From a virus (Duplodnaviria; Caudoviricetes), in the IMG/VR virus record IMGVR_UViG_3300011008_000016, positions 32,001-96,000 of that record: 64,000 bases of DNA; one strand, given 5' to 3'. Shown here in pieces: positions 5,279 through 43,091 of this stretch (position 1 is its first letter; the number at the start of each line of letters is the position of its first letter). A program made the position numbers and the translations under genes. The notes under the pieces were generated by a model that saw only the letters and a list, made by a program, of their open reading frames with translations, did no database searches and was not told where the DNA came from.

Positions 5279-7252
5279 TTATACGTTGAGTATGTTAGAA
5301 GCATACTCATTATCGCCCGTACTAATAGTGATAAATGATAATGATTTTACTACAGGATAAAATGTTCCAATATTCCTTGTTACGATTCGCTCTTCATCCA
5401 GTACAGGATAAACCCATTCTGGAATCTTTGTATTGTCATTTGGTAACGCAAGATATTTACATCCGTTTTTCTCAAATTGAGGAATTCCACCATGGAATAT
5501 ATTTTTCCTTATGATATCCGCCTCTTTTGGGAATTTTGGAGCAAGCTTCTCGTCCAATATCTTTTCACTTGTAAGGTTAAGGAAAACCACATCACATTTA
5601 TCTGGCACCATAATAACATTATCTGGATTGATAAGATTCCAGAGGATTGGTCCAGTAAACGCTCCTTGTGAATACGGGTCTGCATAAGATTTTTCCACCT
5701 TACAGTTCATTCGAAGTAGATACGTCCGTTCTCTGTTATGGATAGATTCTCTTATTTCCCTTTCAAGAGCTGCCACATCTCGCATTAGTCCTACGACATT
5801 GATTAATGGGTCATTAATGATATCTTTTTTAATAATTCCCATTAATTTATCTTCGATATCCTTATTTACCCCAGCCTTTTTGAAGTCATGACCCTTCAAT
5901 TCAATCTTGCTAATTTGCTTTCCTTCCCTAAGTTTGATATGAGCAATATATCGTTTCTTTGCATTAGCAAGTAATACTTTAGAGAAATAAAATTCATTCT
6001 TTGTATTGAGTCGCTGATGGAACCTCGGAAGGACATTACAATCATCTGCATATCTATCCAATAACTCTCTTGCCATTCTGGTTACCAGATAAGCCAATGT
6101 ATTAACACTACAGAATTGCTTATCTTCCTCCCCCATAGATGTATGAGATTGTTCCCAGATATTATCCTTTGTCCAGTCTACCCAAGGTTTAATATTGATA
6201 ACGTTACTATCTGTATCAATCAGAATAACCCTTGACCTTGGATCATGTTTCAACCTATCAATCTGCTCAGTATAAGCATGATTATAGAATACAAATTCCC
6301 GACAATAATCCCAAATAAACTCTAAGTCTTCTTTGATATTTTCTGGTTGTTTATTTGGGTTACGGAAACTCTCAGTAACATTGAAAATTCTCTTGAGACG
6401 ACTACTAATCATATCGTTCTCAACAAACCCGAATAAATTGTTATTGTAGTAGAGTCTCGTTAAATCTTCTACGGAACAATTCCGAAGGATATTCCTAATA
6501 GGTCCATCGTATTCATTTTTCCATTCCCAGAAATTATTTTTCCATACAGCATAAACCATTTCTGGGTCTTGGATATAACGAAGACCATCAATTTTTAAAT
6601 TATGCGGATCTTTCCTGAGAACATTTCCAACCATTGTAAATAGTTCTCCAAGAGATTTGAATTTAACTGCGTTATTTAAGAAGGCTTCAAACGCCATTGC
6701 AGTTGTAGATATAAGCGATTGTGCTGTACCAGTTGTACTTGATGCTGTATAAATGTTATATAACTGGAAAGTTTTCGCCCCAAATGAACCATATATGGCG
6801 TTAATCTTAACCTTGGCTTCCATCTGCATCATTTCATAATATTGATATTCATAGGAATCCGTCTCACCATTTGGTCCAAGATAAGTATCTCGAATTTTTT
6901 GATACTGTTTACGAGCTGCAATACGGCCATCAATAACATTTTGTATTGGAGAGGACTTTACATCATGATTGTAGAAGAAAGTGCCGTGTCCCGCAGCAAT
7001 TGGTCTATTTTTATAATACCAATCGTATAACTTTAATAAGGTTGCCTGAACCTTCATATCATCTTGATAATCGTTATGCAAATATGCTTCATGATCTTCA
7101 ATATGTTCAGATGCTATATCATATAAGACTTTTCGTAGTATATTTTCATCTGCGTTCGGATATTGTAGCTTAAAGTAGACGACATTATCATCCACCCAAT
7201 CCTTTATAAATTTAGAACGCATTAGTATTTCGTTACTAATCATTCTATACAC
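5279..7252 (-). CDS. B-family DNA polymerase, C-terminal part (motifs B and C)
   Basis: KVKINAIYG (motif B), IDTDS (motif C), KKRY, LKG; no exonuclease domain or motif A. Confidence 0.88.
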   Translation of the reverse strand: MYRMISNEILMRSKFIKDWVDDNVVYFKLQYPNADENILRKVLYDIASEHIEDHEAYLHNDYQDDMKVQATLLKLYDWYYKNRPIAAGHGTFFYNHDVKSSPIQNVIDGRIAARKQYQKIRDTYLGPNGETDSYEYQYYEMMQMEAKVKINAIYGSFGAKTFQLYNIYTASSTTGTAQSLISTTAMAFEAFLNNAVKFKSLGELFTMVGNVLRKDPHNLKIDGLRYIQDPEMVYAVWKNNFWEWKNEYDGPIRNILRNCSVEDLTRLYYNNNLFGFVENDMISSRLKRIFNVTESFRNPNKQPENIKEDLEFIWDYCREFVFYNHAYTEQIDRLKHDPRSRVILIDTDSNVINIKPWVDWTKDNIWEQSHTSMGEEDKQFCSVNTLAYLVTRMARELLDRYADDCNVLPRFHQRLNTKNEFYFSKVLLANAKKRYIAHIKLREGKQISKIELKGHDFKKAGVNKDIEDKLMGIIKKDIINDPLINVVGLMRDVAALEREIRESIHNRERTYLLRMNCKVEKSYADPYSQGAFTGPILWNLINPDNVIMVPDKCDVVFLNLTSEKILDEKLAPKFPKEADIIRKNIFHGGIPQFEKNGCKYLALPNDNTKIPEWVYPVLDEERIVTRNIGTFYPVVKSLSFITISTGDNEYASNILNV

Positions 7253-14834: not shown

Positions 14835-17545
14835 AGATGTAATACCCTATCCGCAATTTCTTGCGTCCTTCCTTGATTCCAGTACTGAGTTCCTATGTCA
14901 TTGCTTACCCTCGGTTTCCCGATACTTGCAAAGGGGATTAGAGTACACAATCCTTGTATTTCTACAAGTTGAGAATTATACTCGTTGAACGTCCTCCATT
15001 TTACAGGAGTTTCGCTGCGTCTGGGAGACTTGCACTCCCGGTTATCCCTATCCACACCAGTTTTTATGGTCTCTATGATTTCTCACTAATGAGCTTAAAG
15101 CTCGTGCCACCGTCACGTTTGTCGTTTCCAACTCCGTTGTGGTCGATGTGGGTTATGGGGATTTTCCCGCAATTTATCTCATTTAACGTGGCCGCATAGG
15201 ATTGTTCAGCCACAAGTACGTCTGGCTACAGACATTTTTGACTGGTCTCGATTTCCACAGTTAGGGCATTCCCAAACTAATTTACCATTATCATCTTTAA
15301 CTATCTTAATCTCGCCATCAAATCCGCAACAGGAACAATAGTCAGATTTAGTATTCAGTTCTGCGTACACGATATTTTCATATATAAATTTCATAACGCT
15401 TAATACCGCAGGAATGTTATTTTGAAGATTTGGTACTTCCACATAACTAATTGCTCCTCCAGGTGATAATTTCTGGAAATCAGATTCGAATTTCAGTTTC
15501 GAGAAAGCATCAATTTCTTCTGATACATGAACATGATAGCTATTAGTAATGTAATTTTTGTCAGTAACTCCTTTAATGATTCCAAACCGCTTCTGTAAAC
15601 ATTTTGCAAACTTATAAGTAGTTGATTCAATAGGTGTACCATAAACGGAATAACTGATGTTTTCTTCAGCTCTCCACTGGGCACACTTATCATTGAGCAT
15701 CTGCATAACTTTCAAACTGAATTCTCTACCTTCATCGGAAGTATGTGATTTTCCAGTCATCCTTACGCACATCTCATAGAGTCCGGCGTATCCCAATGAA
15801 ATTGTACTATAATTGTTATAGAGTAATCTATCAATGGTTTCACCTTTCTTTAGTCTTGCAAGGGCACCATGCTGCCAGAGAATCGGCGCAACATCAGATA
15901 CCGTACCCTTGAGCCTTTCATGTCGAATCCTTAGAGCTTTATGACAAAGTTCCAATCTTTCTTCAAGAATATTCCAGAATTTGTTCGTATCTCCGTAAGA
16001 AGAACAGGCAACATCAACCAAGTTAATGGTAACTACACCCTGATTAAATCTTCCATAGTACTTATGTTCTCCGTTTGGTCCAAGACCTTCTATATCTGGG
16101 GTAAGGAAAGACCGACACCCCATACATGTATATACATCGCCATTCTTATACTCTCTCATCTTTTTAGCTGAGATATAATCTGGTACCATCCTCTTGGCAG
16201 TACATTGAGCCGCAAGTTCTGTAAGATACCAATACTTGGAATCCTCTGTCACATTATCTTCATCTAATACGTAGATAAGTTTCGGGAATGCTGGTGTTAC
16301 CCATTGACCCTGTTCATTTTTAACACCCTGCTTCCTCTGAATAAGAACTTCCTTAATGATTGCAGCCAAATCATCTCTTGTTTGACCTTCTTCAACTTCA
16401 TCCAAATACATAAACATTGTGACAAATGGAGCCTGTCCGTTGCATGTCATCAGTGTAATAATTTGGTACTGAATTGTCTGAATTCCTGCTTTAATAACTT
16501 CCTTTAATCGCATCTCTGTAATTTTAGAGACCTTTTCCGAAATTGGCTCATCTCCACAAGCTTCAAATTCATCAATTACGCTTTGACGAATTTTCTGACG
16601 AGATATATCCACAAACGGTGCCAAGTGAGCCAATGAAAATGATTGACCACCATATTGATTGGATGCTACTTGTGCAATAATCTGAGTGGCAATATTACAA
16701 GCGGTTGTGAAACTATGAGGTTTCTCAATGAGAGTTTGTGAAATCACAGTTCCATTCTGTAACATATCTTCCAAGTTCAATAAATCGCAGTTATGACTTT
16801 TTTGCGCGAAATAATCGGTATCATGGAAATGAATAATACCTTCTTCATGTGCTTTTACAATATCCTCAGGAAGAAGCATTCTTTTAGAAATGTCACGGGA
16901 TACTTCTCCTGCCATATAGTCTCTTTGAGTTGAAATGATAACAGGATTTTTGTTTGAATTCTCCTGTTTCATTTCTTCATTATCATCATTGATGAGATTT
17001 AAAATGGCTTCATCAATTGTATTTGATTTACGAGACAATTCTCTTTTATAGCGATATCTGATATATGCCTGAGCCAGCTCTTCGTATCCTTCACGACGCA
17101 TCAATGCAATTTCTACTTTATCCTGTATATCTTCAACACTAACCGCATGAGTTGATTTTGAAACTGCTCCGCTGATTTCCTGAGCGATTCTTTGAACCTC
17201 TATACAAGGAAGTTTCCTGCTCACTGTATCATTTGCCTTTTTAATGGCATTAACAATTTTCTTCGCATCAAATTTAACTTCCTTACCATTTCGTTTGATA
17301 ACATTGATGTTGATATTTCCATTTGCTTCTTCGGGTGTTGCATAAAACATACTTTCGAACCAATCAACTTTGTTTGTTACTCTGTAATGAGTATAAGCAC
17401 CCTCTGTTTCCATACAAATTGCTTCTAATTCATCGTTCTTTTTGTAGTTATGGATAACCCTCTCTATTCTCATTTTGATAGGGTAACCCTCCTCTGCTAA
17501 CATATACCAAATAGTCCCGAGTGTAAACTTGTTATTGTTGTCCAT
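14831..17545 (-). CDS. nrdD: anaerobic (class III) ribonucleoside-triphosphate reductase; exons 17545-15208 and 14898-14831
   Basis: ATP cone (VIKRNGKEVKFD), MGCRSF, C-terminal CxxC...CPNCG; splicing restores RRTCG-Y-IGTQYWNQGRTQEIADRVLHL. Confidence 0.96.
14899..15207 (-). mobile_element. group I self-splicing intron without a homing endonuclease (309 nt)
   Basis: 5' exon ends in U and the intron ends in G; IGS GGCCAC pairs with exon GTGGCT; CCTATG pairs with 3' exon CATAGG; P AAATTGCGGGAA, R GTTCAACGAGTATA, P7 GAGTA/TACTC. Confidence 0.93.
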
Positions 17546-17800
17546 CGATGTGAACCTCCTTTTGGTAAAATTTGTATAAAATAACTAACCAAGATGACCC
17601 GTTTTCTTATTACGTAATCATCTTGGTTAGTTACAATCTTTAATTGAGAGAAATCAATCAAACCCGCAAAATAATCTATTTTAATTTGGTTTTCGGTTGT
17701 TGAATTTCCCAATACAATAAGCTTTGTAGCTAAATCAGAACTGTTTCATAGAGTCATTTCGACCCATTAAGATTTTGTTAATAGAATGGTCAAAACCTAC

Positions 17801-20452: not shown

Positions 20453-20505
20453 TTCCAAAAATCCGGTTCACAGAGATTTTGCAACTATATTAAATACTTA
20501 GATAT
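20453..20505 (+). repeat. promoter/leader repeat, copy 1 (49/53 identical to 40391-40443)
   Basis: TTCCAAAA.TCCGGTTCACAGA....GCAACTATATTAAATACTTAGATAT. Confidence 0.9.
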
Positions 20506-20850
20506 GAGAAGTAGTCAATCCCATATCAATATTAAGAAAGGGAACAAAAAAAGAAATCGATGTGACTGTTAAGAAAGGAGACAGATTATGCCATTAACTG
20601 GTAATATCGTGGATGACAAACTCATTCGCAATTTTAATCGGTTAATCCTTGGTTGTCCGGATGGAATATATCGTCCGAATACAACAAAGGCAAGAAGAGC
20701 TTCGAATCAAAGCTTGATCGAGCAGACGATTCGAAACTCTTCTAACAAAGAAATGGTTTACCAGTATCATTCTTTGTAAGCCATTAACTGGTACCAACCA
20801 ATAAATGGTTGGGGTAATCGGGAGCCCACACACTCCCGATTACTTTTTTG
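20505..20850 (+). ncRNA. candidate structured RNA (overlaps a 63-aa ORF at 20588-20779)
   Basis: hairpins at 20647-20690 and 20695-20741; ACTGGTAA/TTACCAGT long-range pairing; terminator at 20815-20849. Confidence 0.4.
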
Positions 20851-25890: not shown

Positions 25891-27687
25891 TTACGCCGTC
25901 ATCTTCATGCGGTTATAAACCTCTGCACTAATGGTTTCATAGCTTGGAAGATTAAACCACTTCTCACCTAAGAACAGAGTGTTCTTTGCAATAAGATCTT
26001 CTACGAACTCCTTACCAGCGTCATCGTCGTATCGTTTCAGTTTATCTCCATCAATAATAAACAGCTTTCCTATCATTGTAGCCGCAAAGATATTAAAGGA
26101 ACATATAGAATTTGGATACATTGCTGAGAAGTCGAAATCTATAGAATCACCGAAGAGATATTTACTTGCTTTTCCAAACAGAATAATACCGTGATGTCCA
26201 TTTAATTCTGGGTCACCATTGATGGCACCTTCAAATGACTCTTGGGAATCTTCCAAATCTCTTTCGAACGAATCACTCTCAGCATCTTCATCGTAATATC
26301 CATTATCAGAGTCTACTCGTTTAGCCCCATTGTCAAAGTTGACGTTATGGCCGAGTATCAAATTATCGTTAATTAAGAATTCTCTATAGAAGAATGCCCT
26401 TAACGAAACAGTCTGTTTCATACCATCTTTATAGTTGCAGTATGAATGTAGACATGAATTGTATAGGTTATAGGCATCATTACATTTCTCATTAATTCCT
26501 GATTGTAACAAAGTATCGTTGACATTGTATACGTCATACAGCAGGAAATTATTACGAGAAAATAAAATAAAGTTGCCCTTCGTTTCTTCTCCGAATTTAA
26601 TTTTTCCTTCACCAACACCTTCTTTTGTTGCAATAGCATCCAAAGATACTTTTCGAAGAGCTGTCTGCGACCTACGAAGACCAGCGTATACAGCAGGTTG
26701 ATCGAGGTAACGTGTATAAGATGAACAATCGAAATAATTTCTCTTTGTATCCCAATCGAAGTTGTTATTATCTTCATGATAGTAAAGTGTTGATGTAGGG
26801 AAATCCGAATGGCAAAATAGGTTTGCTGGATTCATTTTAAGGTGTTCCGCACGTCCGATAATGTATGGAATATCGAAATCCATATTCCAAATAAAACAAA
26901 TGTCTCGTTTCAGTACATGAATTAATCGAAACGCCTGTGTTAATAAATCTCGTTCATCATCGAACGCATATTGTACATATTCAAACCCCGGAAATGACTC
27001 ATCGAATCGTTCATGTAATTTTTGTTGTAATTCCTCTTGTCTATTCTCAATAAATGGAATAATCTGAGGATTGTCTTTTGTTTTAAGATAAAACGTACTG
27101 ACTCTTCGTTTAACAGAGTCACAAATAGAAATCATATCAATGGGACATTCACCACGCCTTGGAATTGGACCATCCCAATGCATCTGGTCAACCTCGATAT
27201 CAAGGTATATGCAATCTAACCATTTTCTATCTTCATTGTCGAGTTCTTGTTCCCAGATAACCCGGTAATAAGTTTCAATAGGAATGTCTCCACCTAAACA
27301 ATAAGGCCACTTATAAAGTTGCCTACGCATCTTTTTTGTCTTATTTTCATAGTAGAATTTTTCGTATTCTGAACCAGCCATCTTTGCAATTTCTTTTAGT
27401 ACATCTTTATATTTTACCTCGTGCGGAATAAGTTTATCTTTTTCCATATAATGACGAGGTTTCTTAAATGTAGAACGAAGTTCTTCAGGAACCTCATACA
27501 ACATAATGGTTGGTTCAGTAATTGTATAAATTCCCTTCTGTTTCGTGATTAAGTCTTTATATACAAAATTCAGATAATCCTTCCATCCTGTTGTAGCATT
27601 ACCACTTTGATATATAACGTCGCATAACATTAATTTGCGACCGGCAAGTTCTTTAAATACTAAAGGTTCTGTTGCCATTGGAAACAT
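25891..27687 (-). CDS. B-family DNA polymerase, N-terminal part (3'-5' exonuclease plus motif A)
   Basis: YLDIEVD (ExoI), WNMDFDIPYI (ExoII), YNVND (ExoIII), DFDFSAMYPN (motif A). Confidence 0.9.
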   Translation of the reverse strand: MFPMATEPLVFKELAGRKLMLCDVIYQSGNATTGWKDYLNFVYKDLITKQKGIYTITEPTIMLYEVPEELRSTFKKPRHYMEKDKLIPHEVKYKDVLKEIAKMAGSEYEKFYYENKTKKMRRQLYKWPYCLGGDIPIETYYRVIWEQELDNEDRKWLDCIYLDIEVDQMHWDGPIPRRGECPIDMISICDSVKRRVSTFYLKTKDNPQIIPFIENRQEELQQKLHERFDESFPGFEYVQYAFDDERDLLTQAFRLIHVLKRDICFIWNMDFDIPYIIGRAEHLKMNPANLFCHSDFPTSTLYYHEDNNNFDWDTKRNYFDCSSYTRYLDQPAVYAGLRRSQTALRKVSLDAIATKEGVGEGKIKFGEETKGNFILFSRNNFLLYDVYNVNDTLLQSGINEKCNDAYNLYNSCLHSYCNYKDGMKQTVSLRAFFYREFLINDNLILGHNVNFDNGAKRVDSDNGYYDEDAESDSFERDLEDSQESFEGAINGDPELNGHHGIILFGKASKYLFGDSIDFDFSAMYPNSICSFNIFAATMIGKLFIIDGDKLKRYDDDAGKEFVEDLIAKNTLFLGEKWFNLPSYETISAEVYNRMKMTA

Positions 27688-35999: not shown

Positions 36000-38525
36000 T
36001 TATATCCACCCATCATCATTGTGGGATTTCTTTTTGGTACCAAATGCCGTATATTCCATACTGGATGCCTTACGATTATTTAGGTTTGCCCATTTTTCTC
36101 GTAGCATTGATGCTGGGCTATCCGCACTTGGAGACCTATCAACTGTTTGTTTTCCATATTCGGGATCAGCTTGTACCAAATCCTTTACAATAGAGCCCAT
36201 TTCATTATCAGCAACGGCCCGTAATGTCATACTCTTCTTTTCTTTGTATTTCTCTTCCAATCTGGTACGAACAGTACTTTCGTAGAATTGAGTCATTGTA
36301 GGGAATTGAGCACGAATAAGAGGGTTCTTATAAAGCTCTTCTAAGTTCTCAAATTCTTCATCGAGAACCATATCATCTGGTAATTCCCCTTTATGGAATC
36401 CATAACGTTCTAACTTTTCACCAAAATAGTATGCGTACATTGCAATACACCACGACATAACACAGTCATCGTGTTTATCAGCCGCAGCTTTAATGATATC
36501 ATTCTTTATAACCAGATTCTTAATGTCTTCCACTAAGTTTTCTGATCTTAGTATGTCTTTTCGGAATTTTACAGAATCTACCAGTATAGACATCATCATT
36601 CTTCTGGTTGTTGTCGTTGTATGAACACCATAATATTTCCGTCTCATCAATTCATCTTTTAAGAATCCTACATTATCGTATTTGTCTCTTGTAAGAAGTG
36701 TTTCAGGAGATGCTTCCGAAGAGGCATATATACGACTTTTAATCCAAGAATCTTTAAAGAAATCTATGAGTGTAATACCATTACGGTTACTTTCAACACA
36801 GATAATTGCTTTTGGTATCCATTTTGTAAGCATATATTCCAACAATTCTCGACACCCTTGTGGAGACATATATTCGTTCTTAAACTCAATAACAGTTTTA
36901 AACGTATATGGATCTATAACGGTCATTGCGTAATTATCAGAGCCAGTACCATCGGATGGGTCAAGTCCCAAGAAGTAAATTCTATTTTTTCTTATCTCTT
37001 CTTGAGGTACGTAGAATTTAATCTCATACATTCCGCCTTTTCCGAACTTAACAACTTCAACTGGTTTCTGTTGATTTTCATCAAGTTCAGTGATATCTTC
37101 TTCACTAAACGGTGACATATTGTTACCGGAGAACCTTTGAAGTAAGATTTCCCTACGAATCTTTGGAATGTTATTACCAACCGTAGAGCAAGCTCTTACA
37201 AACCAAGCTTCCCCAAGTCCCAATTGTTTGTAATTATATTCGATGTAAACAACTCGATAGTTTGTCTTCTTGACGATATACTTTTTAAACTCTAAAGGAT
37301 GTACATCGTAATATTTTTCACTCCAGACGACAGAATCTTCTACGATTTTTAGTGCAGAACCGCACTTCTTTTCGTTTGATAAGTCTCCCGGAGTAGTAGC
37401 AAACATCCGACATGAATGCATCCCATTCATTAGAGCGTTATATGAAGCTGTATTGAATGCCATACCTGAGACCTGTACAGTAGTTTCAATACAAGTGGTG
37501 AATTCTGCTTCATCAAAGAACTCAAAGTTATGAGTATCGCCACGACCAAGTTCGTCAGCAGTTTCTTCTGATATGGCACAATGCATAACATCCGCAGTAT
37601 TTCTGGTTACAGGTTCTGCGTATTTCGTAATGTTATTTGTTTTCTTAACAAGTCTACCAGAGTTATCATATGTTTTGGAACCCATATTAGCCATATATTT
37701 AGGGAGTAGACCAATATAAGTTACCATTCTCTTTAAGTTGGCTTTACTATTCTTTTCTTTATTGGCATAAAAAGCAAATCCACCATTGGTGATACCGAAC
37801 TTAAATGCCCAAGATAAGAAAGCACATAACCCAACCGATTTTCCAGTCTGTCGAGGTTTGATTAAATAGAAATTGATATCATTAATGAAACAATATGCTG
37901 CTGCAAGTGTCGCTCTATCTAATTCAAATTGTACAACACCCGCACCCTGTTGGGGTATTCTTACAACCTCTCTTAAATAATAGAAGAAGTTCAATTGACA
38001 TTCTTCTATGACCATCATTGCAACCTGAGGAGAGATATTCGGGTCGTGTGGATCTACTCCCTTTAGTTTGGGATTCAATAATAATAAAAAGAATTCATTA
38101 TTCCGAATCCCAAGCATCTTTAATTGCTCATGTACCTTTAAGAATGACTTATTCTTTGTTTCATGATCATAGATGGGACGCATTGCCCTATATCCGTTAA
38201 AATATGCCGGATTTGATACATCAGGGGAAATCGTTTGATGTATAGTATTACTTGATGGTGACTCATTTTTTGTGTCACCATCAAGTATTCTTTTCACAGC
38301 ATTATCATCCAGAACAGGAGAATCTTCAATATCTGTATTTACTACTTGTATATCTGGATTATCTGCGTTTATTTGGCTCATTCGTACCTTCTGTATCATA
38401 TCAGAAAGTGTCATTTGTTTTGGTTGATATGTTACTTGTACTTGCTCCTCTGATGTTTGTCGGGGTTCTTCATTACCGGCAGTTCTAAACTTAGGTCGAA
38501 GTTTTGATATGGGAGCGTATACCAA
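36000..38525 (-). CDS. terminase large subunit
   Basis: KPRQTGKS Walker A, FFDEAEF Walker B, TTPG, LGLDPSDG and KHDDCVMS nuclease motifs, VESN. Confidence 0.92.
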   Translation of the reverse strand: MVYAPISKLRPKFRTAGNEEPRQTSEEQVQVTYQPKQMTLSDMIQKVRMSQINADNPDIQVVNTDIEDSPVLDDNAVKRILDGDTKNESPSSNTIHQTISPDVSNPAYFNGYRAMRPIYDHETKNKSFLKVHEQLKMLGIRNNEFFLLLLNPKLKGVDPHDPNISPQVAMMVIEECQLNFFYYLREVVRIPQQGAGVVQFELDRATLAAAYCFINDINFYLIKPRQTGKSVGLCAFLSWAFKFGITNGGFAFYANKEKNSKANLKRMVTYIGLLPKYMANMGSKTYDNSGRLVKKTNNITKYAEPVTRNTADVMHCAISEETADELGRGDTHNFEFFDEAEFTTCIETTVQVSGMAFNTASYNALMNGMHSCRMFATTPGDLSNEKKCGSALKIVEDSVVWSEKYYDVHPLEFKKYIVKKTNYRVVYIEYNYKQLGLGEAWFVRACSTVGNNIPKIRREILLQRFSGNNMSPFSEEDITELDENQQKPVEVVKFGKGGMYEIKFYVPQEEIRKNRIYFLGLDPSDGTGSDNYAMTVIDPYTFKTVIEFKNEYMSPQGCRELLEYMLTKWIPKAIICVESNRNGITLIDFFKDSWIKSRIYASSEASPETLLTRDKYDNVGFLKDELMRRKYYGVHTTTTTRRMMMSILVDSVKFRKDILRSENLVEDIKNLVIKNDIIKAAADKHDDCVMSWCIAMYAYYFGEKLERYGFHKGELPDDMVLDEEFENLEELYKNPLIRAQFPTMTQFYESTVRTRLEEKYKEKKSMTLRAVADNEMGSIVKDLVQADPEYGKQTVDRSPSADSPASMLREKWANLNNRKASSMEYTAFGTKKKSHNDDGWI

Positions 38526-38530
38526 TTATA

Positions 38531-39865
38531 TCACCCCTCATATCCTGCTGGATATTTTACGTAAATGCCGTATTTATCCCCGATATTATCGACATTCTTT
38601 GACAAAATCTCTTTTCTCATTTCATTAAGTCTATCCAACCTGTCATCTTTAGGCAGATTCAGAACTCTACCCTTTGCTGCTTTAATCTGTTTTGTTTCCT
38701 CCTCTTTGATGGCATCAATGCAGTCATAGACTTTATGTATGAAATACATTTTATCTTCTGGTGTCTTGATATCATCAATCTGAACCTGAAGTACATCAAG
38801 GTCTCGTGATGTTACTTTCATTGCTTCAGTTATAGCAGATTCAGCCGCTTTCTTCTGCTGGTCATATTCCCTATTATATGCGTTTTCCATAAGGGACTTT
38901 GATGTCGAGGTTGTATACTTATCATCACCAGGGTCGTATCCAGTAAGGTTACGTCCAACGAAAGTCATAAGTTTCTTCTGGAAATGACTATTTGTCGGAT
39001 TGTTATATTGAGCCTGAATCTGCCGATTCAACATATCCCTACGATCCCGTAGCATTTCAACAGAATCCCTGGATAACTCAATACCGACTTCCTGCTCTTT
39101 GTCGAATGATTTTCCGTCTACAACCATTCGAGAACCTTCAGGAGAAGTAAGCAGATTTTCATTCATATAAGAAACTAATGCGCCCTTATATTCATCAGGT
39201 ACATAAGCATCCGCAGCCATTTCGCAAGCTTTCTGATCGTGCCTATCTCGAACGACAATAAAGAATTCCAATGTATGAGTAAACATCGGAAGAAGTATCG
39301 CCCTAACAATTCGGCTATTAGAAAGCATCATTTTCTCTAACATAGAAAATTCAAGGGACTTCACTTTGTAGTTATTGATAAGTCGAATCGGATTCTCTGT
39401 CATAACATGACCGATTTCATGACAAAGAAGTGCTACAAACTGTCGTCCATCCGTTACACATAAACGGTTTCCTTTTGTCAACACCCTTGTATCAATTTCA
39501 ATATGCCATTCATGAATTTCTGCCCATTTCCGGACAAACTCTGCATTGTTAGACCTTGGATTCGTGAGAATCTTAGTGAGTTCGTCTGACTTTGCATAGA
39601 GTTCACTGATATCGGGAGTTATTGACATAACAAATGCTGTTTTCGCATTCTGATTCCATGTAATAGTGACTCTCTTTGAAGGCATCAATGTGTTAGGAAT
39701 AACCCTTGCAAGAACATTATTTAGGCTCATAGCCATTGCTGGATTATTCTGTTTACTACTCAAAAAATAATTGACTTCATCCTCAATAATCTTGAGTTGA
39801 GCCAATTCTGATGTTGAGAATGTACTCATTATAGTATGTCTCCTTTCTTTATTCGTATAACTCAA
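38531..39865 (-). CDS. putative virion protein with a zincin metallopeptidase motif
   Basis: LLCHEIGHV plus downstream EMAAD; late-type motif upstream at 40140. Confidence 0.6.
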   Translation of the reverse strand: MSYTNKERRHTIMSTFSTSELAQLKIIEDEVNYFLSSKQNNPAMAMSLNNVLARVIPNTLMPSKRVTITWNQNAKTAFVMSITPDISELYAKSDELTKILTNPRSNNAEFVRKWAEIHEWHIEIDTRVLTKGNRLCVTDGRQFVALLCHEIGHVMTENPIRLINNYKVKSLEFSMLEKMMLSNSRIVRAILLPMFTHTLEFFIVVRDRHDQKACEMAADAYVPDEYKGALVSYMNENLLTSPEGSRMVVDGKSFDKEQEVGIELSRDSVEMLRDRRDMLNRQIQAQYNNPTNSHFQKKLMTFVGRNLTGYDPGDDKYTTSTSKSLMENAYNREYDQQKKAAESAITEAMKVTSRDLDVLQVQIDDIKTPEDKMYFIHKVYDCIDAIKEEETKQIKAAKGRVLNLPKDDRLDRLNEMRKEILSKNVDNIGDKYGIYVKYPAGYEG

Positions 39866-40130
39866 TTCCTAATTCTTTTAATTCTTCCGGACTTAACTGG
39901 TCTAATCCTAAACCCGCCAATGCTTCTTTCTGAGTAATTGGTTGATTCGGGTCCCAAGGTTCATATCCAGATTCTATGAGATGCCCGATAAAAGCATCTA
40001 TGTCACAACCTGCATCTTTGAGTTTTAAGTCATCCCATTTTCCAGATTCAAGTTGTCTCTTTGCATATTCCCGATAAGCTTCTTCATTTGTACTGTAAGG
40101 TGTATCCATAAGAAACTCCTTTCTGGCCAA
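39849..40130 (-). CDS. hypothetical protein
   Basis: short acidic ORF; start probably the ATG at 40109 after AAGGAG. Confidence 0.55.
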   Translation of the reverse strand: MARKEFLMDTPYSTNEEAYREYAKRQLESGKWDDLKLKDAGCDIDAFIGHLIESGYEPWDPNQPITQKEALAGLGLDQLSPEELKELGIELYE

Positions 40131-40214
40131 TAGTTTATCTTAGAATTGTGTTGAATACGAGCATTCTAAATCAAATTCGTGATGGTGGATTATTCATGAA
40201 TATATTAAATCTTT

Positions 40215-40385
40215 ATACATAAGATAACCAATAACCATTTACTACTTAGATAAAGCGAAAATGCAGAGATACAGAAGTTAAGGAGCTATCAATTCGTATT
40301 ACAACTCTACGAAAGATAACCTTATTTCTGCATCTCTGCATTTTTCGTAGCAAGGGGGCGAAAGCCCCCTTCTACCCGTTTTTTG
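40215..40385 (+). ncRNA. candidate small RNA: long hairpin plus terminator
   Basis: TATATTAA at 40201; about 28-bp stem between 40255 and 40348; GC hairpin at 40352-40371 plus T-run; no ORF. Confidence 0.6.
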
Positions 40386-40390
40386 TATAT

Positions 40391-40443
40391 TTCCAAAATT
40401 CCGGTTCACAGACTTTTCGCAACTATATTAAATACTTAGATAT
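40391..40443 (+). repeat. promoter/leader repeat, copy 2
   Basis: 49/53 identical to 20453-20505; contains TATATTAA at 40424. Confidence 0.9.
40424..40431 (+). promoter_or_regulatory. representative early-type promoter motif TATATTAW
   Basis: also at 8759, 13546, 20486, 40201, 45998, 50567, 53271 and 59224 (+) and 15, 7340 and 25873 (-), in intergenic DNA. Confidence 0.75.
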
Positions 40444-41010
40444 ACAGAATAAATCCAAAGATAATGCAATTAGAAAGGAACATTATCAGATTCTATATAT
40501 CGAGTCTATAGAAAGGAGTGAACCTTCGGTGAAAAACATTTGGTCAAACTTGGCACTTGCTACAACAGGGAAGCATAATCCAAATTATACAGGTGTCCAA
40601 GCGATGAGTGATTTACAGAAGAGACTGCCTGCAAGTACAAGGATTGCTACTCGTAATGTGTCCGCATTACACGTAACCCAAGACTTGCAAGGCAGTCTCA
40701 TTCTTCTGTAAGTTACCACCGTCAACCAGTGGTGATTGGTAACCGCAGTTTCATGGACGAGTATGATTCACATCGTTCAAATATTGCGGATAATCCCGAA
40801 CTGTTTGAATCTGACATTAATCAGATAATGGCAGTTCTGGGTTAAATCCCATCATTACGACATACCATCCATTCTAATTCTGCAATTATCAAATTGTTAT
40901 AATATAAATAATCTATTAGAATATGATGGTATGAGATGGTGCTACAGAAATCGTACCTTGACAACTGAATAAAATAGGGGTGGTCGGTCGCGACTCAACC
41001 ACCCCCCTTA
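40440..41010 (+). ncRNA. candidate large structured RNA (about 550 nt)
   Basis: successive long stems (40613-40711, 40733-40790, 40792-40844, 40861-40933), boxA-like GTACCTTGACAACTGAATA at 40953, GC hairpin at 40977-41006. Confidence 0.6.
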
Positions 41011-41097
41011 CACTATACACCCTATGATAATTTATAGGGCCGCAGGTATATCCCGCGATTAATAAAATGTTATGTGTAGTTTAAATTATAATGATTA

Positions 41098-41146
41098 AAA
41101 CCGTAAAGGGTAACGACGATAGTTACCCTTTACGGTTTATTTTTTT
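41098..41146. terminator. intrinsic terminator downstream of the major capsid gene
   Basis: AAACCGTAAAGGGTAAC...GTTACCCTTTACGGTTT perfect 17-bp inverted repeat. Confidence 0.85.
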
Positions 41147-41168
41147 GTACTGTTTAACCGAACATTGC

Positions 41169-43091
41169 TTACATGTTCTCAGCCGTTACAGCAGAATCAT
41201 AGTTCTTGATCTTGAGCTGGAACGCGAACGGAACGTAAGGACGTGTGAAGAACGTAGCAACACACATTACGTTCGGGTTGTTCGGCATCTCGCGTACCCT
41301 GTGGTCACGATCAAAGTACAGAGCCCTCTTGAAATGTTTCCAAGTAAGGAAGTTCTGCTCGTTGATCGGGAAGCCAAGTCCGCGAATTCCATCCTCTTCC
41401 TTGAATTTCAGGGAAGTGATGATACGAAGAGCATTTCCATCCTGAGTCGTAACACCCATGTTGTAGTCGGAACGGATTCCGCCAATGATGTTATCGCCAG
41501 CATTGACCTTCCAGTCGAAATTACTTCCGACAAAGAGAGAAGCCACATTCGGATGGCAATATGCTGTAAGTCTGAACGGCTCGTTCTGGCAGGTCCTGCG
41601 AGCTTCACGAATAATCGCATTCAGCTCATTGCTGACCTTATCCTGTAAGTACTCAAGCCGCTTCATGTACGGATTATTCTGATCATACGCAACATCCACT
41701 GTACGCGTAATGAACACACGACCTTTGAAGTGAATGAACGGATGCTCAGTGACACCACGCCACTTCTCGGTCTCATCCTGAATCGTCTTGACGATAGAAG
41801 TATCCTCAAGATTGTTGTAAATCTCTGTCAGGCGGTTAATACCCCAAGCGATGATATCGATGGAAGCAGTCTCGTTGTACAAACGCATATCCTCAACAGT
41901 GATAGGCAGATTTGCACGATACCCTTCCGGGATTGGATGCTGCCATGCATCGTATTCATCTCTGAACGACAGATATTCCATGTTATTCTTATTGGACAGA
42001 TTTCCGCCGAAGCGAACCTGCTTTACAAGACCGTTCATGGAAACAACGCTGACACGAGCGGTATACTCGTCGTAGGTAGCCATCAGGACATCCTCGGCAT
42101 ATCTCTCGATATTACCAGCAGCATCCTTAACAGGGAACCTTACCTTACCGCCAATCTGGTTCTTCGGGCTAATAGCGGTCGTATCCAGATACTTCTCAAG
42201 TCCAGAAATCTCAACCATATAGCTCTCGCCCGCAGAGTTCGTAACCATAGCACGAGCGGCATCAATGCAAACATTGATATCCAGTGCGTCGCCGATTTCA
42301 CGAGCCCCACCAGACTCACCAAGCAGGTCAAGGTCTTCGACCCTACCAGCCTTATCTGTGAACTTATATTTCTTTTCAGAACTTCCTTCACCCTCAGTGA
42401 AATCAGGAGTACCAGTGGAAGAAGCCTCAAGCTCCTCAACACCATCCTCCGGATACCAAGTGGAAGTAACCCTCGGTCCCTTAGCGGACTGAAGGATTTC
42501 AGCCGTTGCATCGTAATCGTTGTATACATCCGGCTCAAGATGACGCTGTCCATCCTTCGTTACGATGTACTTGAACTGCTCCTTAATACGAATGAAGTGC
42601 TGCTTCGGCACGATGTAAGGAAGTAGATCCTTTCCGACAAGCGGAAGATATGTACGAATGATAACAAAAGGTAAGAAAGCATCGTAAGGCGTTAATTCGC
42701 CAATACCCCTTTGGTTCGCATTTGCTACACGCATTTCGGTGGTAGAATTCTCCAGAAGTCTCTGGAGGTTTCCTCTATGCAAGTCAGCCATGCCAACTGC
42801 TTCGGAGACTTCGTCATCGTCTTCGGTCATGCTCTCAAGGAAAACGCACGCACCTTTTTCGTAACTATTATCACCGAATAACTGCAAGCCATTGGAGTTA
42901 TCTACTGACTCCATTGCCATCGCAATGGTCGTATCTTCGAAATCTTTACTGTAAAGACTCATCGGGTCCCGAATAGGATCAGCGTAACCGGCTACTCGTC
43001 CAATGAATGATTCCATGGACTGGACAAGGTCTTCCGGAGTCTCACGCTTATACATATTGAGACGCTGAGTTCTGTTCATACCAGCACTCAT
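41169..43091 (-). CDS. major capsid protein (precursor)
   Basis: 640 aa; strongly biased codon usage; N-terminal region rich in x-x-E-S/A cleavage-like sites; strong terminator; lies near terminase. Confidence 0.7.
   Translation of the reverse strand: MSAGMNRTQRLNMYKRETPEDLVQSMESFIGRVAGYADPIRDPMSLYSKDFEDTTIAMAMESVDNSNGLQLFGDNSYEKGACVFLESMTEDDDEVSEAVGMADLHRGNLQRLLENSTTEMRVANANQRGIGELTPYDAFLPFVIIRTYLPLVGKDLLPYIVPKQHFIRIKEQFKYIVTKDGQRHLEPDVYNDYDATAEILQSAKGPRVTSTWYPEDGVEELEASSTGTPDFTEGEGSSEKKYKFTDKAGRVEDLDLLGESGGAREIGDALDINVCIDAARAMVTNSAGESYMVEISGLEKYLDTTAISPKNQIGGKVRFPVKDAAGNIERYAEDVLMATYDEYTARVSVVSMNGLVKQVRFGGNLSNKNNMEYLSFRDEYDAWQHPIPEGYRANLPITVEDMRLYNETASIDIIAWGINRLTEIYNNLEDTSIVKTIQDETEKWRGVTEHPFIHFKGRVFITRTVDVAYDQNNPYMKRLEYLQDKVSNELNAIIREARRTCQNEPFRLTAYCHPNVASLFVGSNFDWKVNAGDNIIGGIRSDYNMGVTTQDGNALRIITSLKFKEEDGIRGLGFPINEQNFLTWKHFKRALYFDRDHRVREMPNNPNVMCVATFFTRPYVPFAFQLKIKNYDSAVTAENM

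Follow-up and report, generated by a model that had tools for sequence, protein, structure and literature searches.

A hairpin-tiled small gene with an early-type promoter between the capsid and terminase operons of a phiKZ/AR9-type jumbo phage

The DNA analysed here (hereafter the window) is a stretch of 64,000 nucleotides that forms part of a complete phage record of 244,309 bp. Two RNA polymerase beta-like genes (PF00562) and a tubulin are encoded in this genome (G000), and because of this gene content the phage is placed with the phiKZ/AR9-type jumbo phages. AR9 and phiKZ possess two multisubunit RNA polymerases, a TATATTA-type early promoter and an AACA-N6-TA late motif (PMC5312081; PMC13282480). 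The window's phage resembles them in its two polymerase genes and in both kinds of motif, but differs in carrying a protein family, described below, for which neither PHROG nor Pfam gave a match. A Firmicute host is probable, judged only from the Shine-Dalgarno sequence of its AGGAG-type ribosome-binding sites. No tRNA gene was found in the whole phage genome, and chimallin was not identified among the ten large ORFs checked. The family B DNA polymerase is split over two distant genes (window 5279-7252 and 25891-27687, minus strand), a phiKZ-like arrangement.

The island of interest lies between the major capsid gene (41169-43091, minus strand) and the terminase gene (36000-38525, minus strand), with the tail sheath further left, also on the minus strand. 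The terminase operon begins with an inserted 93-aa ORF (39849-40130, minus strand); it is absent from the syntenic loci of relatives, which were reached via a capsid protein search, and no relatives of it were found in viral contigs. The island holds the following features:

40201-40208, plus strand: early-type promoter core TATATTAA of an upstream small RNA, after the AR9 consensus (PMC5312081); an ATATTAA-like motif is likewise placed in relatives
40215-40385, plus strand: separate RNA of ~170 nt, with a bulged hairpin (40258-40344), a GAAA-tetraloop hairpin (40354-40369) and a U-tract
40379-40443, plus strand: extended early promoter module of 65 nt, core TATATTAA at 40424-40431; seven genome copies with 83-94% identity
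40510-40518, plus strand: Shine-Dalgarno sequence AGAAAGGAG, in a leader segment common to sister cassettes
40529-40711, plus strand: 60-aa ORF with GTG start at 40529; the family protein's N-terminal half is encoded by codons 1-43, after which comes an out-of-frame tail
40601-40720, plus strand: long coding hairpin, colinear with that of the ortholog; its long stem was located at 40608-40716
40657-40661, plus strand: frameshift site in the apical loop of the long hairpin, where a short GT repeat holds two bases more than the ortholog
40657-40845, plus strand: open -1 frame, the C-terminal half of the protein, with a helix-turn-helix block at 40744-40842
40743-40790, plus strand: hairpin over the Y-E-x-x-R codons (CCGCAG/TTGCGG), the sole stem in register family-wide
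40791-40844, plus strand: hairpin over the last 17 codons, found in relatives in differing registers
40861-40933, plus strand: further stem, quoted earlier and present
40887-40898, minus strand: late-promoter-like AACA-N6-TA inside the 40861-40933 hairpin, pointing back through the ORF
40965-41071, minus strand: candidate late RNA of ~95 nt, with AACA-N6-TA at 41071-41060, two small hairpins and a GC hairpin (40977-41006) followed by a U-tract
41098-41147, plus strand: terminator of the plus-strand unit, a 17-bp stem and U-tract

An earlier note on this DNA had placed in the island a large non-coding RNA of about 550 nt, and the sequences and stems that it quoted were all found in their places by direct sequence check. 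Its claim of heavy base-pairing is borne out: the plus strand of 40440-41010 folds at -179.6 kcal/mol (z -9.46, matched by 0/100 shuffles), and in a scan of the 244-kb genome this region is the second strongest sustained folded block of 480 nt. However, judged from its signals, the unit is a cassette of early promoter, ribosome-binding site, ORF and terminator, not an ORF-free RNA. The start motif proposed at 40424 proved to be the core of the repeated 65-nt promoter module and matches the AR9 early consensus (PMC5312081); with the promoter-to-start spacing borrowed from AR9, transcription would begin near 40438. The GC hairpin that had been taken to close the unit carries its U-tract on the minus strand and the plus-strand terminator stands at 41098-41147, so the unit would measure ~710 nt rather than 550. 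This terminator probably serves the minus strand as well, closing the major capsid operon. Among family copies, a ribosome-binding site precedes the ORF in 14/16 and a U-tract lies within 100 nt of the stop in 15/16. The island also houses a second, separate plus-strand unit (40201-40385). In the window, an SD-like sequence recurs at 40472-40479 (plus strand); the leader there (40464-40511, plus strand) and the sister leaders at G000 161307, 175280 and 195994 hold two or three SD-like repeats and a 15-codon upstream ORF that ends just 5' of the main ribosome-binding site. These elements may provide 5'-end stabilisation or translation coupling.

The label non-coding does not hold, as the site AGAAAGGAG stands before the GTG at 40529 and the structured body is, from the codon pattern in relatives, a protein-coding gene under purifying selection. 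Nor is the 60-aa ORF the only one on this strand, since it is overlapped by a second open frame (40657-40845) that holds the conserved domain. Both frames are spanned by a single intact 106-aa ORF in an ortholog (P0141, contig L080), which has the upstream terminator, the 65-nt promoter module and the ribosome-binding site as in the window. A stem similar to the window's terminator is also present there, in a 3' region ~200 nt shorter, the 3' third of the window unit being missing. Identity to P0141 is 60% over 43 aa for the 60-aa ORF and 58% over 57 aa for the -1 frame. The latter matches the family profile at E 2.8e-20 and, with a model built without the window copy and without the ortholog, reaches 59.5 bits and scores above the ortholog. 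Similarly, capsid-adjacent relatives have a promoter, a ribosome-binding site and an intact 71-78-aa ORF at the equivalent place, and the C-terminal 31 residues of these ORFs match the -1 frame, not the 60-aa ORF. A metagenome scan with P0141 gave no further orthologs, leaving one close ortholog in all. On another contig (L067, JGI 3300035498) the promoter, ribosome-binding site and start codon are deleted and the copy is fused directly to the upstream terminator, with its C-terminal frame still open.

A profile search over 1.84 billion proteins returned 19 matches, 17 of them credible, with lengths of 57-106 aa, and the copy number in four near-complete genomes is 1, 6, 0 and 0. Eighteen DNA copies align gap-free over 33 codons; third codon positions vary most, and pN/pS is 0.10-0.45 across nine pairs. 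Between window and ortholog, uncorrected pN/pS in three parts is 0.24, 0.39 and 0.29, the first two values belonging to the 60-aa ORF part. The predicted protein has a disordered, variable N-terminus and a confident, conserved C-terminal helix-turn-helix of 33 residues (AlphaFold pLDDT 91) with invariant residues F-x7-R-x6-P, and a membrane helix is absent (best 19-residue hydropathy <=1.08). No Pfam or PHROG family matched it and no relative was found in the PDB or among solved structures; Foldseek and VIA gave generic helix pairs only (best Z 4.2), and the matches of an Atlas search were all under Atlas's own lead threshold. The body was unmatched in a DNA search of annotated phages and an exact-pattern scan of IMG/VR. 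These proteins form a previously undescribed family of small, putatively early jumbo-phage proteins. A RecA C-terminal look-alike from bacterial genomes was treated as a generic helix-NP-helix motif, because it had been picked from 84 candidates and was missing in the whole-library profile search. Family copies on contigs L061, L078, L081 and L100 adjoin a phage ABC-transporter (PF00664/PF00005) or RNA polymerase gene.

Comparison of the copies shows that the RNA fold is selected alongside the peptide. Compensatory changes among homologues, the covariation by which the earlier note had proposed to judge the structure, are present in the long stem and in the Y-E-x-x-R hairpin; together with the AR9-type early promoter they uphold its putative early plus-strand transcript with a selected structure. 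The long hairpin shares 36 pairs between the window and L080 (20 unchanged, 5 with one-sided and 11 with two-sided changes), and 500 synonymous recodings of the L080 peptide shared 3.8 pairs on average, with 0/500 reaching 36. In the Y-E-x-x-R hairpin 75.6% of cells are paired and five pairs show two-sided change, counts that relatedness inflates; its Arg codon is CGN in 18/18 copies (again inflated by relatedness), whereas AGR makes up 48% of the Arg codons of the genome. Moreover, folding of the conserved block is stronger than that of synonymous recodings with matched GC content (window z -4.9, genome background -0.7 +/- 1.3), and the sense strand folds more strongly than the antisense strand in 18/18 copies. 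Among the other hairpins the register varies from subgroup to subgroup, and most are not homologous across distant members, so selection appears to favour a hairpin-tiled message with no single ornate architecture. Invariant nucleotides among the 18 copies all fall inside codons of conserved residues.

The window allele itself seems to have received a recent 2-nt insertion, through which the 60-aa product would lack the conserved domain while the RNA fold stays untouched. Matching codon blocks are spaced 29 nt apart in the window and 27 nt in L080, and deleting 2 nt at the frameshift site shifts the fold by <2 kcal/mol. The C-terminal half is undecayed (short branch, high profile score), so the break would be recent or, less likely, recoded. 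That the ribosome hops over the long hairpin, or that this hairpin is spliced out, was suggested by a 104-nt skip that fitted the length versus L002; both ideas were rejected because the ortholog codes straight through the homologous hairpin.

On the minus strand, a late-type motif (consensus from AR9; PMC5312081) lies at -20 to +60 of the stop in 11/18 family copies, compared to 8/235 genes of the window's genome. The antisense motif is present in 7/13 sequence clusters, with a rough binomial p of 2e-5 for a motif that was spotted by eye before counting. Seven late promoters of AR9 drive antisense RNA (PMC5312081). In the capsid-adjacent copies, the late-type promoter might feed the terminase operon instead. 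The candidate ~95-nt minus-strand RNA is antisense to the 3' part of the plus-strand unit and is absent from the ortholog.

The explanation that we favour, with reasonable rather than high confidence, is a structure-protected early mRNA that encodes a small protein and is switched off late by an antisense promoter, the window allele being a recently broken one. By analogy with AR9, the virion RNA polymerase would transcribe the mini-gene from its strong, repeated promoter. Hairpin tiling would most likely make the early message long-lived and resistant to nucleases, and keep its translation restrained. The small soluble protein would most likely act in takeover or anti-defence by binding to a protein of the host or the phage early in infection, a role suggested by its timing, size and pattern of gain and loss. 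The early small proteins of phiKZ include the ribosome binder phiKZ014 (PMC10914614). Later, the promoter whose motif is seen on the opposite strand would probably silence the mini-gene by antisense transcription. No account of families of early mini-genes that are tiled with hairpins and show compensatory base changes was found in the literature.

Elsewhere in the genome, the remaining strongly folded blocks lie downstream of copies of the promoter module; they code for two additional families of small paralogs, likewise laid out as promoter, hairpins and terminator. Family C at G000 183841-184320 (minus strand; L109) ranks first in folding among all blocks of the genome (mean z -8.4) and has the same promoter module and an apparently leaderless 55-aa ORF; three paralogs lie at G000 160943, 174957 and 195661. 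Family B has two copies, at window 20453-20850 (plus strand; ORF 20588-20779) and G000 17360-17549, each a hairpin-tiled ORF of ~62 aa with the 65-nt promoter module upstream and its own terminator. Both families are unrelated to the mini-gene family by profile and were not found in three relatives.

A dual-function RNA is a possible, though doubtful, alternative, in which the fold regulates by base-pairing, acts as a decoy for a protein or serves RNase III as a substrate, and in which the window copy still works without the peptide. It would account for the 11 two-sided changes of the long stem falling where the peptide is least conserved, for an insertion so placed that the fold stays intact, for L067 retaining the body without start signals, and for the long additional structured 3' regions of the window and L002. 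Against it, all hairpins but one are non-homologous among paralogs, nucleotide invariance is confined to conserved-residue codons, L067 folds less than any other capsid-adjacent copy (z -1.9) and no base-pairing target was seen in the genome. Dual-function RNAs are exemplified by S. aureus RNAIII/delta-haemolysin and B. subtilis SR1/SR1P and SR7 (PMC12612679, PMC8501984, PMC7834092). With them the mini-gene has in common a promoter and a terminator of its own, a small ORF and a structured transcript on which two kinds of constraint act; it differs in that its ORF takes up most of the transcript and in being phage-encoded and multicopy, and any base-pairing activity would be hypothetical. A bolder and equally tentative proposal is that at least three unrelated mini-gene families are dual-function early transcripts whose fold acts on its own (as decoy, armour against RNA-targeting defence, or regulator) until late antisense transcription turns them off, the protein being dead and the RNA alive in the window.

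The favoured structured mRNA also shares features with the Firmicute type I toxin mRNAs txpA/RatA, bsrG/SR4 and fst, namely a folded small-protein message and a convergent antisense promoter, present here as a motif only. A type I toxin-antitoxin-like pair, with a toxic small protein, a structured mRNA and a convergent antisense RNA, is nevertheless improbable, even though the start region lies within stems in several copies. The mini-gene protein is a predicted soluble helix-turn-helix, not a hydrophobic peptide, and no Rfam or Pfam toxin-antitoxin family matched. Furthermore, the sense and antisense promoters belong to different temporal classes, early and late, which suits a timer, not addiction, and the antisense RNA would begin at the stop codon and cover the entire ORF.

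Two readings would keep a full-length protein in the window, and both are very improbable. Programmed recoding, by a -1 shift between 40657 and 40708, could draw on the undecayed -1 frame, open from 40657, and on the strong stems downstream. However, there is no X XXY YYZ slippery site within the overlap, the ortholog and all other copies are single-frame, and duplication within the GT repeat is a simple explanation. An assembly error in an intact gene would fit the position of the site within a short dinucleotide repeat, but an ENA contig (L066) has identical bases there, gap-free and with no indel relative to the window, and a further JGI contig encodes an identical 60-aa product, although the ENA and JGI sequences may share the window's sample.

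The weakest reading takes the ORF as incidental to a large, ornate RNA that is non-coding, as ROOL and GOLLD are. It has size, a strong fold and an own promoter in its favour, and is largely refuted by the conserved ribosome-binding site, ORF and codon pattern, a register kept family-wide by just one stem, an ortholog without the 3' third, and the absence of Rfam hits and tRNAs. With gathering and E-value thresholds, Rfam gave nothing for the window and 19 related loci; no ROOL, GOLLD, tmRNA or RNase P model matched, and group I/II introns, tmRNA and RNase P were excluded on the same ground. The Rfam entries concerned are RF03087 for ROOL and RF02032 for GOLLD. Likeness to these RNAs extends to a length of ~600-700 nt, a strong fold and a phage of an anaerobic Firmicute-type host (the host being inferred from the Shine-Dalgarno sequence only), whereas the window unit is protein-coding, has one stem in register family-wide, no tRNA neighbours and no covariance-model match. 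ROOL has six conserved multistem junctions and three pseudoknots (PMC5737381). In its mode of action the window unit would resemble an early mRNA with structure, or else a dual-function RNA, and it is not a member of the ROOL, GOLLD or membrane-toxin type I groups.

A false non-coding RNA lead has in this way turned into a new, testable family of putative early effectors of jumbo phages, and it serves as a warning for non-coding RNA screens, in which a folded, frameshifted mini-gene can mimic a large RNA. The family shows that a phage ORF can be shaped over its full length by selection on protein and RNA structure together, and the two layers are already uncoupled in natural alleles that are intact, frameshifted or promoter-less. 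A takeover or anti-defence role of the peptide would imply a new binding partner. Protection of early messages by the fold would be relevant to the way jumbo phages withstand RNA-targeting immunity, to which they are known to be vulnerable (PMC13282480).

Judged from its layout, the upstream unit at 40201-40385 is a stronger candidate for a non-coding RNA than the mini-gene in this island. No Rfam model matched its ~170-nt RNA, and in G004 it was not found by exact pattern. Per genome it is single copy, between the capsid and terminase operons, and two-sided change is seen in 4/26 pairs (four sequences). Its layout is kept in 7/7 other syntenic loci read (L001, L002, L003, L067, L068, L079 and L080), with very different sequences and no ORF in common; two of the seven carry no mini-gene, the RNA thus being kept more widely than the mini-gene.
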